Assembly: GCA_963674735.2 (NCBI GenBank)
Contig: CAXXQS010000001.1
Coordinates: forward strand, 320,001 to 384,000
Length of the DNA: 64,000 bases
Direction: 5' to 3'
DNA from: Myxococcota bacterium
GTDB lineage: Bacteria; Myxococcota_A; SURF-8
In this document: in pieces, positions 50,545 through 54,152 of the stretch
Layout: every line of letters begins with the position of its first letter
How positions within the stretch are numbered: the stretch's first letter is position 1
Notes under the pieces: generated by a model
Told to the model about the DNA's origin: nothing
The model's input: the letters and a program-made list of their open reading frames with translations, nothing else
The model's database searches: none
Translations under genes and position numbers: made by a program

Positions 50545-51018
50545 GTGAGTATGATCGAAAAGTTTGTTAAGCCGTTTATTCAGGCCACCATAGAATGTTT
50601 CGATACGATGGTTGATGTCGTTCCGCAGCCGAAAAACGTACGGGCTGAATTGCCTCCGGTAGCGCAATCGCATATTTGCGCTCTGATCGGTCTGTCGGGT
50701 GATGCTCAAGGTATGGTGTCGCTAAGCTTTAATCTGGACGTTTCACTGGCCGTGGTCAGCAACTTTATCGGAGAGCCGGTAACGGAAAGCGGTGAGGAAG
50801 TCTATGATGCGATTGGTGAGATTCTCAATATTATCGCAGGGGCGGCGAAAGCGTTGATTGTTGATTCCAAGATCATGATATCACTACCTTCGATTATGCA
50901 TGGTGAGAAATTTTTCATGTCGGTTCCCAAGGATGTCCAGGTGGTGACCGTCAGCTTCGAGTTGCCGGATATCGGGGAGTTTGAGTTGGCCGTTGGGCTG
51001 AAAAACAGCAACGCTTGA
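50545..51018 (+). CDS. cheX: Chemotaxis phosphatase CheX
   Basis: KPFIQAT, ALIGLSGDAQG, DAIGEILNIIAG, ISLPSI. Confidence 0.88.
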   Translation: MSMIEKFVKPFIQATIECFDTMVDVVPQPKNVRAELPPVAQSHICALIGLSGDAQGMVSLSFNLDVSLAVVSNFIGEPVTESGEEVYDAIGEILNIIAGAAKALIVDSKIMISLPSIMHGEKFFMSVPKDVQVVTVSFELPDIGEFELAVGLKNSNA

Positions 51019-51046
51019 GGTTATTTCCGTTTATCGGGAGGATACG

Positions 51047-51415
51047 ATGAAAATTCTTGTGGTCGATGATTCCAGCACGATGCGTAAGATCATTAAAAAG
51101 ACGATTCTTTTAGCGGGTGCTGATGAAGTGGTGGAAGCCGAGGATGGGCTCGATGCTTTGAAAAAGCTAAAAGAGCACGATCTGGGTTTTGATATGATCA
51201 TGCTGGACATCAACATGCCGAAAGTGGATGGCGTAACGACCCTGAAGCAACTCAAAGGCATGGAAAACACCAAGCATATACCCGTGGTGATGTGTACGTC
51301 GGAGGCTGAAAAAGAGATGGTGCTCGAATGCATCAAGGCTGGTGCCATGGATTATGTGGTCAAGCCGTTCACGAAAGAATTGATCGCCCAGAAGATTGCC
51401 AAAGTGAGCAAATAA
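51047..51415 (+). CDS. cheY: Single-domain response regulator, CheY-like
   Basis: [34 protein letters not shown]. Confidence 0.88.
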
Positions 51416-51437
51416 CTCGAACCGACAGGCTTCAAGT

Positions 51438-54152
51438 ATGACACGGATGATTCCGGTGTTGGTCGCAATGACGCTGCTGTTGATAGGCGGTGGATTTGTG
51501 CATTCCGCCGCCGCGGCGGACGCATCCGGACGCGAAACCGTTTTCCTGCTCGACGATTCGGGTTCCATGCGAAAAAACGATCGGCTCAGTTTGGCCAAAC
51601 AGGCGGCCGAGATGTTCGTGCGCCTGCAACAGCCGAACGACCACCTCGGTGTGGTGGCCTTTGCCGACAAGACGCGGGCTATCCAGGCACTCGAACCGAT
51701 GAAGAAAGATCGGAGCAAGCGCCGTCTTATTCGGGAAATCAAGCGATTGACGCGCAAAGGGCGTTTTACCGATATTGAAAAGGCGCTCAAAGGCACGTTC
51801 GATCTGTTTACCAGTCGTCCCGGTTTTTCACGTGCGGTGCTTCTCCTGACCGATGGGCGGGTCGATCTGGACAACGACGCTAAAAGCGATACGCCGGTCG
51901 AAGTTGCTTCTCGTGAAACGATCCTTCAGGAACTGGGCGGACGTTTCACCAAGTTGGGGATCCCGGTCTACACAATCGGCTTCGGTCGTTTCGCCGATAA
52001 CGATCTGCTGAGTCGGCTGGCCGGGCAGACCGGCGGACAATTCTTTCGCATCGAACGACCCGAACAGATCTCGAAGGTCTATTTTAAAATCTTCAATGAA
52101 ATCGCCGCGCCCCAGATGGCGCCGGTCAATCAAGGGCGTTTTCGCATCGATGCGGCTATCGACGAAGCGACGGTGGTTATTCAGTCGGTGAAGCGTTCTT
52201 CTCGCTTGTATCTCTACGATCCCAAAGGCAAACGCTTCGCCAAGCGCAAGCGAAGCAAAACCATGCGCTGGGGAGGGAACGACTCCTACCAGATGGTCAC
52301 GATTCCGCATCCTATTTCCGGCGAGTGGCGCTTGGAAGGCATCGAGGATCAAAATGCCAATGTGGTGATTCTCACCAATATTCAGTTGAAGATGCCCGCC
52401 GTTCGCTCGCTTTATCATGAAGATGAGCCGATTCCGGTGCTGGCGCGTGTGGATATGGGGGAAAAGGGTGAAGGACTGCCCATTGATCTGAAAATATCGG
52501 CGGAGTTGGTGGATGAAGCCGGCGATGTCTTGGAATCCATCTATCTGGCGGATGTTGAGACATCGAACCACGCGTGCAAGGGGCGTGAGGTGGATCGCGA
52601 ACCGGGCGGCTATTGGGCCGGAGCTTTTTTGCCTCAACGTCAACGCAAAGCGGGCCTCTATACGGTACGGGTGCGCGCCAAGGCCGACACGTTTGTTCGC
52701 GAGCGTAGTTCGGCGTTGCGTATTGCCGCCGGTCCCTGGGTTACGCTTGAAACGCTCAGTGGTGAGTTCGGTCAGGGGGAGTCGGTGCCATTCCGTTTTC
52801 ACGTATCGACTCGTCTTTTGGACGACGACATTGAGGATGGGGCGGAGCGTCTGCCGAGCATCGGAGATATGGCGCAACCGTTTCAATTGAAACTGACGAC
52901 TCCCGGTGGTGCCGTGCGTAGTGTGTCGGTGAAAGAGAGCGCTGCGAATGTGTATGAGGCGGTGTTTCCGAACATACAGGAGGACGGGGCTTATTCCCTG
53001 ACTTTGTCCGTGCGTTTGAATCCGCAGTCGATTCTTTGCCTGGCACAGTCTAAGGCGTTCAATTATCATGCAACTGTGACCGAAGGCTCCGGTGGGAGTG
53101 GATTCGATCTGGGCATTTCCAAAACCACGCTGATTACCGTCGGTGTGGGAGTGTTGTTATTGTTGGGTCTGCTATTATTGGTTTGGCAAGTCATTCGTGT
53201 GCGGCGTTTGGCCAGGGATCGAGCCGAAGTGGCGGCTAGCAAACCCGCCCCAGCCGCTCCCAAACTCAAGCCTGTGCCCGAACCCGAGCCCGAACCTGAA
53301 CCCGAACCCGAGCTCGAACCTGAGCTCGAACCCGAGCTCGAACCTGAGCTCGAACCCGAACCTGAACCCGAGCTCGAACCCGAGCCTGAACCCGAGCCTG
53401 AACCTGAACCCGAACCCGAACCCGAGCCCGAGCCCGAGCCCGAGCCCGAGCCTGAACCTGAACCTGAACCCGAATCCGAGCCCGAGCCCGAACCCGAGCT
53501 CGAACCCGAGCCCGAACCCGAGCCCGAACCCGAGCCCGAACCCGAGCCCGAACCCGAGCCCGAACCCGAGCCCGAGCCTGAACCCGAGACCGGACCGGTC
53601 ACGAATGAAGCCGTAAGAAGTGTTACCGAGAAAGCGGTCGAAATGGACGATGTCGATCGACTGATCAATCGTATGGAAAGCATCGCTTCCGAGATCGAGT
53701 CGGAAGACGATCTTGCAGAAGACGAGGAGTTTGATCATCATTTGAGTGCCGCAGAGGCCATGGATGAGGTGGATTCGCTTATCACACAGTTGAATACGAA
53801 GAATTCGAGTGACGAGACTCAGCAGGTGGCGGAGGATTTGTTTGCCGAGATGGTGGCGGAATCGAAAACCGAAGAAGATCCGCAGCCGGTAGCCGCAGCG
53901 GAGGAAAGCCCGGCGGAATCCGACGAGGATGATCTGTTCGCCGAAATGGCCGCGATGGAAAAAGCCGAAAAGGCCGAGAAGGAAGCGACGAAAGCGCAGC
54001 GTACCAAGAAAGAAGAAGCGGCGGCCGAAGAAGAAATTGAGGAAATCCCCAAAGATTTCAGTGATATCGAAAAGGCCATCGAACGCATGGAGCGTATTGC
54101 CCGGGCCAAGTCGGGCATGGTGGATGATCTGGATGGAAAGAGCAAGAAATAG
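51438..54152 (+). CDS. vWA-domain single-pass membrane protein with TIGR03503-like region, (PE)n linker and acidic tail
   Basis: Signal peptide, MIDAS DDSGSM...TD...[15 protein letters not shown]...[13 protein letters not shown] near 53127-53195. Confidence 0.85.
53277..53588 (+). repeat. Hexamer tandem repeat CCNGAR/CTCGAA, 52 units encoding Pro-Glu
   Basis: 312 bp in frame within the vWA gene. Confidence 0.95.

Follow-up and report, generated by a model that had tools for sequence, protein, structure and literature searches.

A membrane protein encoded with CheX and CheY as a candidate docking scaffold in the motor pathway of one lineage of flagellated Myxococcota

We analyzed a 64,000-nucleotide stretch of a Myxococcota genome (assembly GCA_963674735.2, contig CAXXQS010000001.1, positions 320,001 to 384,000; here C1:320001-384000, called the window) in which cheX and cheY are followed by a gene for a 904-residue membrane protein with a von Willebrand factor A (vWA) domain. 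Our analyses revealed that this three-gene unit is conserved among flagellated relatives and that the long acidic tail of the membrane protein carries repeated amphipathic helices. We propose, tentatively and with a probability of about 0.4, that the vWA protein is anchored in the membrane as a scaffold on which CheY and/or CheX dock within the motor pathway; that the tail would bind CheY is suggested by the gene linkage. The open reading frame (ORF) list places all three genes on the plus strand, with gaps of 28 bp between cheX and cheY and 22 bp between cheY and the third gene, in agreement with a preliminary description of this DNA made from the sequence alone. That description had also seen no cheA or cheW here, and indeed no CheW or CheA domain was found in the window: all seven CheW-domain matches of the genome lie outside it, the nearest at C1:501773.

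Both small proteins are well matched to their families. The window CheX scored 77.2 bits against PF13690 (cut-off 27), and its closest solved relatives are the CheX proteins 3h4y and 3hm4. Residues D88, G91, E92, N95 and P115 are invariant across eight aligned sequences, and E92 and N95 correspond to the E-x2-N motif, which we take to be the conserved CheX catalytic site. The window CheY scored 105 bits against PF00072, its best solved relatives are CheY structures, and its best NCBIfam model is PRK10610 (CheY), at 105.5 bits. This score falls under the equivalog cut-off of 189 bits, but we judged the model narrow because only 1 of 12 control-genome matches passes that cut-off. In an alignment with the best solved CheY match, 4hns, residues D7, D8, D54, T84, Y103 and K106 are the same; the acidic pocket, the phospho-acceptor and the Thr/Tyr/Lys switch residues are intact. 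When the whole genome was compared with the CheY model, the window CheY scored 107.3 bits and the next of the 31 matches, in a 476-residue frame, 62.3 bits. The six other single-domain receivers of the genome reached at most 55 bits on this model or were not listed for it, and have other best models. By these sequence scores, the window CheY is the sole canonical CheY of its flagellated genome and therefore should act on the motor; most likely it is the CheY that controls the motor, with the adjoining CheX as its phosphatase.

The genome, which is 94% complete, contains two CheA genes (one of them receiver-fused), five separate CheW genes and two clear CheX genes; CheC was not found in it. Its flagellar cluster is full, from fliF to fliM with motAB. 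A second che cluster (C1:169000-173100) consists of cheD, a gene for an HDOD protein, a receiver gene, a weak CheX-like ORF and cheB, and the other clear cheX (C2:1150135-1150599) stands alone among genes without a Pfam match. Cultured members of the Myxococcota are known to glide. The relatives of this genome carry the Myxococcota label, yet the flagellar gene set is complete (C2:1704529-1718259), and FliM matches were found in 14 of the 41 related genomes searched.

The order and strand of cheX, cheY and the vWA gene are kept at seven of eight distinct loci: the window, G003, G001, G005, G004, G008 and the metagenome locus L012. At the eighth, G002, the contig ends 223 bases upstream of the vWA gene, inside a cheY of which the last 65 codons are visible. 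Thus, the linkage with cheXY, whose conservation had been left to be checked in homologs, is that of a conserved unit. The flanks of the unit vary. Sigma-54 activator and thioredoxin/DsbD genes are found both in the window and at G004, and G005, L012 and G002 have either pntAB upstream or cheB-cheD-cheX on the opposite strand downstream. A word-index search returned just two close relatives of the 904-residue protein, at 38% and 37% identity; more orthologs came from genome and metagenome scans and from searches of related genomes, and the named records are Myxococcota metagenome-assembled genomes. When 401 genomes of the phylum were sampled, seven had a full-length ortholog: all six of family f1, to which the genome of the window belongs, and the single genome of family f4; one further genome among the 401 had a match to the vWA part alone. 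The CheY orthologs are 57 to 72% identical to the window CheY, and the ectodomains of the membrane proteins are 21 to 38% identical. Among the 41 genomes searched, a CheY ortholog (at least 205 bits, or 114 bits in the case of the cut copy) is confined to those seven, in one copy per genome that adjoins the vWA gene, and the best match elsewhere scored 113 bits. In the sister family f2, which is flagellated, the CheY-like genes are different ones that score at most 113 bits, and the membrane protein has no ortholog. All seven unit-bearing genomes have flagellar genes, with a FliM match in six and FlhA in the seventh, G001. In the portions of the literature that our search covered, nothing was found on a cheX-cheY-vWA linkage.

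The features of the window proteins are collected in Table 1. As in the preliminary description, the 904-residue protein has a signal peptide, in the form of a signal-peptide-like helix, a vWA domain with an intact metal ion-dependent adhesion site (MIDAS) and one transmembrane (TM) helix. The matches to PF00092 and PF13519 are both above cut-off, with E about 1e-17, and the MIDAS residues read from the sequence are DDSGS at 39-43, T111 and D139. An AlphaFold2 (AF2) model of residues 1-588, made from an eight-row alignment (mean predicted local distance difference test [pLDDT] 76.6, predicted template modeling score [pTM] 0.65), has a vWA fold at about 30-223. Its Foldseek matches are vWA proteins, including the bacterial vWA structure 4fx5, pilus tip adhesins, ANTXR2 (which combines vWA and immunoglobulin-like [Ig-like] domains) and BatB. 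The beta-sandwich region that follows gave weak matches to GBD_Hemicentin and TIGR03503.

Residues 565-587 form the sole hydrophobic helix after the N-terminus. RVRRLARDR comes next, which by the positive-inside rule predicts a cytoplasmic tail, and by eye a basic stretch is present at this point in all eight orthologs; a periplasmic tail, which the preliminary description had named as a threat to its scaffold proposal, is not what these sequences predict. In a two-membrane cell of the Myxococcota type, a signal peptide combined with one C-terminal TM helix should leave the vWA and the three beta-sandwich domains in the periplasm, anchored at the inner membrane. The earlier term "adhesin-like" is unlikely to apply to a predicted periplasmic vWA part held at the inner membrane of such a cell. 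A surface adhesin was rejected on the predicted inner-membrane type I layout in a two-membrane cell, and neither a sortase nor a MYXO-CTERM-type signal was seen in the Pfam and NCBIfam results for the protein. A sortase target was likewise rejected: the TIGR03788 match, which scores 44.8 bits where the cut-off is 551, covers the vWA part alone.

Table 1. Positions of the genes and protein features discussed (window numbering, except for the last row)
Feature	Position	Strand	Size or residues	Remarks
cheX	50545-51018	+	157 aa	PF13690 E 1e-21; family of phosphatases of phosphorylated CheY (CheY-P)
cheY	51047-51415	+	122 aa	PF00072 E 3e-30; single-domain receiver
vWA membrane protein gene	51438-54152	+	904 aa	bitopic: vWA, three beta-sandwich domains, TM helix, acidic tail
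Signal-peptide-like N-terminus	51438-51518	+	1-27	hydrophobic helix 4-19 in model, then Ala run; presumed cleavage
vWA domain with MIDAS	51537-52079	+	34-214	PF00092 62.2 bits, PF13519 64.6 bits
Three beta-sandwich (Ig-like) domains	52113-53081	+	226-548	all-strand in model: 226-312, 316-430, 435-548
Single TM helix	53130-53198	+	565-587	helix in AF2 model; RVRRLARDR next
(xE)52 spacer	53277-53588	+	614-717 (104 aa)	45 PE, 6 LE, 1 SE
Tail helix motif 1	53634-53690	+	733-751 (core 737-747)	pattern match; predicted helix 725-755, pLDDT about 80
Tail helix motif 2	53751-53807	+	772-790 (core 776-786)	pattern match; predicted helix 771-788, pLDDT about 85
DLFAEM copy 1	53835-53852	+	800-805	in predicted helix 792-810; like DLLAEIMGE repeats of distant relatives
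DLFAEM copy 2	53931-53948	+	832-837	in predicted helix 829-869
C-terminal helix motif	54048-54104	+	871-889 (core 874-885)	pattern match; predicted helix 875-892
Soluble PAS-PAS-PAS-MCP (methyl-accepting chemotaxis protein) gene	47494-49623	-		upstream of cheX, divergent
PAS sigma-54 activator gene	54193-55926	-		downstream of the 904-residue gene, convergent
pilZ, paralog, 817-aa TPR protein, receiver-less sigma-54 activator	C2:1696257-1703159, outside the window	one strand		just upstream of flagellar cluster

The tail comprises 317 residues (588-904), of which 111 are D or E and 29 are K or R. It had been described as containing a (PE)52 spacer; the 104-residue length stands, and a strict PE repeat does not, since the 52 xE units are of the three kinds listed in Table 1. 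The spacer DNA is a tandem repeat of period 12 with 25.5 copies (53276-53587), and the fully extended arm could reach about 30 nm at 0.3 nm per residue. The amphipathic repeats and the two DLFAEM segments seen earlier are present, together with a fifth, C-terminal copy that had been missed. Motifs 1 and 2 have the form MD(D/E)VDxLI. The C-terminal motif aligns with the C-terminal copies of the representatives P0001 and P0002, and most orthologs carry a near-C-terminal copy. A single-sequence AlphaFold2 prediction of residues 724-904 has no tertiary fold (pTM 0.17) and five helices with raised pLDDT values of 73 to 85, and the five motif sites of the window protein coincide with these five helices.

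The helices of the tails follow the pattern acidic, hydrophobic, D/E, x, hydrophobic, hydrophobic, x, x, hydrophobic. Searched as hydrophobic, D/E/N/A/Q/S, x, hydrophobic, hydrophobic, x, x, hydrophobic, the pattern was matched 36 times in the eight orthologous tails (3, 13, 4, 2, 2, 2, 4 and 6), compared to 1.32 matches expected from 2000 shuffles per tail; seven matches were found in the eight ectodomains. The five further close representatives P0020-P0024 have 2 to 6 matches each. Each ortholog thus carries 2 to 13 amphipathic helices after a spacer of at least 55 residues. The tails are fast-evolving among the orthologs, and the motifs, whose conservation was another point to be checked, are kept in all eight. 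A hidden Markov model (HMM) of the motif was run against all 26684 ORFs of the genome and, the protein itself aside, found no ORF at E below 1. A Protein Atlas search with the tail gave no usable match.

The CheY-docking peptides of FliM (N-terminus of the LSQxEIDALL type, core EIDALL) and CheZ (C-terminal core VDDLL) are, like the tail motifs, short acidic amphipathic helices on flexible segments, and by eye the cores are alike in the order D/E, hydrophobic, D, x, hydrophobic, hydrophobic. The tail motifs are, in addition, encoded beside a CheY with canonical switch residues. They differ in being present in 2 to 13 copies on a membrane-anchored tail, whereas FliM, a switch protein, and CheZ, a phosphatase, each carry a single one. 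The window CheX, for its part, belongs to the same fold family as the CheC/FliY/CheX phosphatases and the CheX of the spirochaete CheX-CheY3 pair, and is encoded beside its presumed substrate CheY. Known CheX proteins work without a membrane partner, whereas here a third gene adjoins. FliY and CheZ carry their own CheY-docking peptide; unlike in those proteins, the docking function may here be supplied in trans by the third gene.

A second linkage in the same genomes parallels the first. Each genome also holds a paralog of the membrane protein, about 25 to 29% identical, and at all five loci the paralog lies directly 3′ of a PilZ gene (about 230 codons) on the same strand. In the genome of the window, the cluster that comes after the paralog reads fliF-fliG-fliH-fliI...fliK...flgE-motA-motB-fliL-fliM, and the G004 paralog lies at the same distance from fliM, 20 kb upstream of it. 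The PilZ protein matches PF07238 (E 7e-12) and is borderline for the YcgR-type N domain PilZNR (23.1 bits against a cut-off of 23); its best solved match, Bacillus subtilis YpfA (5vx6), is weak (E 0.11). It may be of the YcgR/MotI motor-brake type. The paralog tails are acidic as well, have 0 or 1 matches to the tail pattern and share a different conserved segment. Thus, the tail motifs track the co-encoded cytoplasmic partner. Two sister membrane proteins, each with its own small regulator and its own tail motif, constitute the strongest indirect argument that the tails dock the co-encoded regulator.

These observations lead us to propose the following arrangement. The periplasmic module would hold the protein at a particular site, probably the flagellar pole or motor, and the acidic arm, (xE)52 in the window protein, would present the helices to form a multivalent membrane dock. 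The helices would bind CheY, probably CheY-P, at the alpha4-beta5-alpha5 face, on which the FliM N-terminus and the CheZ C-terminus dock; CheX may be an additional or an alternative ligand of the helices. A local pool of CheY-P would then be held beside its phosphatase, and the motor signal would be buffered, localized or drained. The PilZ-linked paralog may play the same role for a motor regulator dependent on cyclic di-GMP (c-di-GMP), via its own tail motif.

The preliminary description had also pictured a transmembrane scaffold or sink, as a non-motor output or a localization hub. The conserved unit, the predicted cytoplasmic side of the tail and the conserved helices support this in part; the non-motor output is very unlikely. 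In such a scheme, CheY-P on the tail would alter the clustering or state of the periplasmic vWA module from the inside out, and so control envelope attachment or a periplasmic ligand. This would fit the MIDAS, which is intact in seven of the eight orthologs, and a succession of vWA, Ig-like domains, TM helix and tail that recalls ANTXR2 and integrin-type receptors. Yet a single TM helix joined to a disordered linker of at least 55 residues would be a poor conformational conduit, and the paralog of the same genome has a degenerate vWA-like region with no DxSxS motif and no Pfam VWA match; the G004 ortholog has lost its MIDAS. Moreover, the CheY concerned is by far the best CheY match of a flagellated genome (107 versus 62 bits), the sole canonical one, which should act on the motor, and the paralog and its PilZ gene lie upstream of the flagellar cluster.

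Several observations weigh against the docking scaffold or limit its scope. The search pattern was written from the very tails on which it was counted, so the shuffling test shows order beyond composition and is no independent discovery of the motif; the number of copies (2 to 13) and the length of the tail (141 to 633 residues) vary widely. An HMM of the 36 copies gave the N-terminus of the FliM of the same genome, MDQVLSQNEVNALL, a score of -1.9 bits and rank 1414 among 2015 rows. When a 32-copy profile was run against all PDB sequences, CheZ and FliM were absent from the matches at E up to 10; the best matches were paxillin LD1 (E 0.007) and leupaxin LD1 (E 0.12), and for this reason the motif is, as judged from its sequence, a generic acidic amphipathic helix. 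Distant relatives with one class of tail (class A, below), some of them from Candidatus Sumerlaeota and known from protein sequences alone, carry the pattern too, and the motif may therefore not be tied to cheXY. In the G004 ortholog (L029:7015-10359), LALEKTSPESS stands in place of the MIDAS motif DxSxS, although the tail motifs and the linkage to cheX-cheY are kept; ligand binding is therefore not a property of every vWA domain in the set. Finally, related genomes are non-independent samples, and all loci come from one order.

The likeness to FliM and CheZ docking peptides drawn in the preliminary description was not specific in these profile searches. The paxillin LD motif MDDLDALLADLESTT has the same acidic and hydrophobic spacing as the tail motif; the match to paxillin and leupaxin is almost certainly convergence, and shows no more than that the motif is of the generic docking-helix kind. 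LD motifs have eukaryotic partners, FAT-type helical bundles, of which no counterpart is known here. A prediction of the complex of CheY (seven-row alignment) with tail residues 728-795, which had no control runs, gave an ipSAE of 0.00 twice and weighs on neither side of the binding question.

A generic motif would also suit a different role. In this somewhat doubtful alternative, the vWA protein serves as a landmark or structural component, either polar or associated with the flagellum, that is co-expressed with cheXY, and the tail recruits chemoreceptor arrays, ParA/ParC-type ATPases, FlhG or stators rather than CheY or CheX. The model for such a protein is HubP/FimV, a bitopic type in which a periplasmic module with LysM serves as the anchor and is joined by one TM helix to a long cytoplasmic region, acidic and repetitive, to which proteins of motility and chemotaxis are recruited; a FimV C-terminal domain is present. 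The 904-residue protein shares this layout of periplasmic module, single TM helix and long acidic repetitive tail, and the landmark role is also consistent with the position of the paralog just upstream of the flagellar cluster, with the LD-like character of the motif and its unspecific likeness to FliM and CheZ, and with the similar motifs in relatives from other phyla. The resemblance is one of layout only: there is no homology, a vWA and three beta-sandwich domains take the place of LysM, the tail motif is another one, and neither LysM nor the FimV C-terminal domain is among the Pfam matches of the protein. Against the landmark role, the vWA gene is linked one-to-one to a CheY ortholog over two families and its paralog to PilZ at five of five loci, which is most simply explained by direct partnership, and each paralog class has its own tail motif. 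We continue to favor the docking scaffold, and propose that the 904-residue protein would work like both the FliM/CheZ/FliY docking peptides and the HubP/FimV hubs while belonging to neither group.

The protein could also be a periplasmic vWA protein unrelated to chemotaxis, joined in an operon with cheXY by co-regulation or descent and bearing a low-complexity tail with no specific partners. Membrane proteins with vWA domains are indeed very common, as an ectodomain profile found 33208 representatives at E up to 0.001, and the fast evolution of the tail and the derivation of all loci from one order would fit. We consider this improbable: the three-gene order is kept despite changing flanks and a vWA protein at only 21 to 38% identity, the motif occurs in every tail, compared to the 1.32 matches expected from shuffles, and a parallel PilZ-paralog pair stands beside the flagellar cluster.

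At E up to 1e-30, the ectodomain profile retained 1070 representatives, of which 11 are close (above 480 bits). Tail classes of the distant relatives were defined from 20 representatives together with P0025 and P0026. Class A tails have SExDLLAEIMGE repeats and a C-terminal IDDILKxIEGL, with pattern matches in nine of nine; one such protein is from Candidatus Sumerlaeota and another is named "TIGR03503 family" at its source. Class B tails are coiled coils that end in EEYMALY...LKK, and class C tails, of the Marinobacter type, have acidic FDL repeats at the end; neither class has pattern matches. Among the distant relatives P0026-P0085, each tail class has its own conserved short C-terminal motif. 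TIGR03503 itself aligns to residues 229-525 of the 904-residue protein at 52.7 bits, far from its cut-off of 305.6, and by this model the protein is not a member; the term was absent from those parts of the literature that were searched. Among the retained representatives that were read, a TM helix and a tail with short motifs of its own are frequent; the cheX-cheY linkage was seen in the close clade only. Together, these sequences suggest a large family of membrane scaffolds in which the docking motifs on the cytoplasmic side are interchangeable.

The unit is flanked by genes for two PAS proteins (Table 1). The PAS-PAS-PAS-MCP protein contains a Cys motif, HCNTxxCRCKQAM, in two repeats inside its PAS domains, and the PAS regions of the downstream sigma-54 activator are also Cys-rich; these proteins may be metal or redox sensors. 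Genes for a sigma-54 activator, thioredoxin and DsbD also come after the G004 ortholog. The 920-bp gap 5′ of cheX (49624-50544) has a G+C fraction of 0.43-0.45, compared to 0.55-0.65 in its surroundings. No convincing ORF was found in it, and Rfam gave one snoRNA match at chance level (E 0.75). The gap contains one sigma-70-like site (50166-50195). A scan of 49500-54400 found five promoter-like and eight terminator-like sites, compared to 3.4 and 5.9 in shuffled sequence, and thus added no information.

Chemotaxis output is usually described as CheY-P diffusing freely from the receptor arrays to the motor, and we know of CheY-docking peptides only on FliM, FliY and CheZ. With a multi-helix dock encoded beside the sole CheY and its phosphatase, this output would gain a spatial layer, the dock acting as a sink, a buffer or a localizer, and the PilZ-paired sister beside the flagellar cluster points to the same layer. 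A broader view, which on present evidence we regard as unlikely, is that the bitopic vWA/Ig family provides motor-proximal docking platforms, each paralog serving one diffusible motor regulator: CheY-P, with CheX, via LD-like helices borne on a long polyanionic arm, and the c-di-GMP-binding PilZ brake via a different tail motif. If this were true, the cell would control where, besides how much, each signal reaches the rotor. The docking scaffold bears on motility in flagellated Myxococcota, and would give a first functional lead for a large uncharacterized group of vWA membrane proteins, the 1070 representatives retained above.

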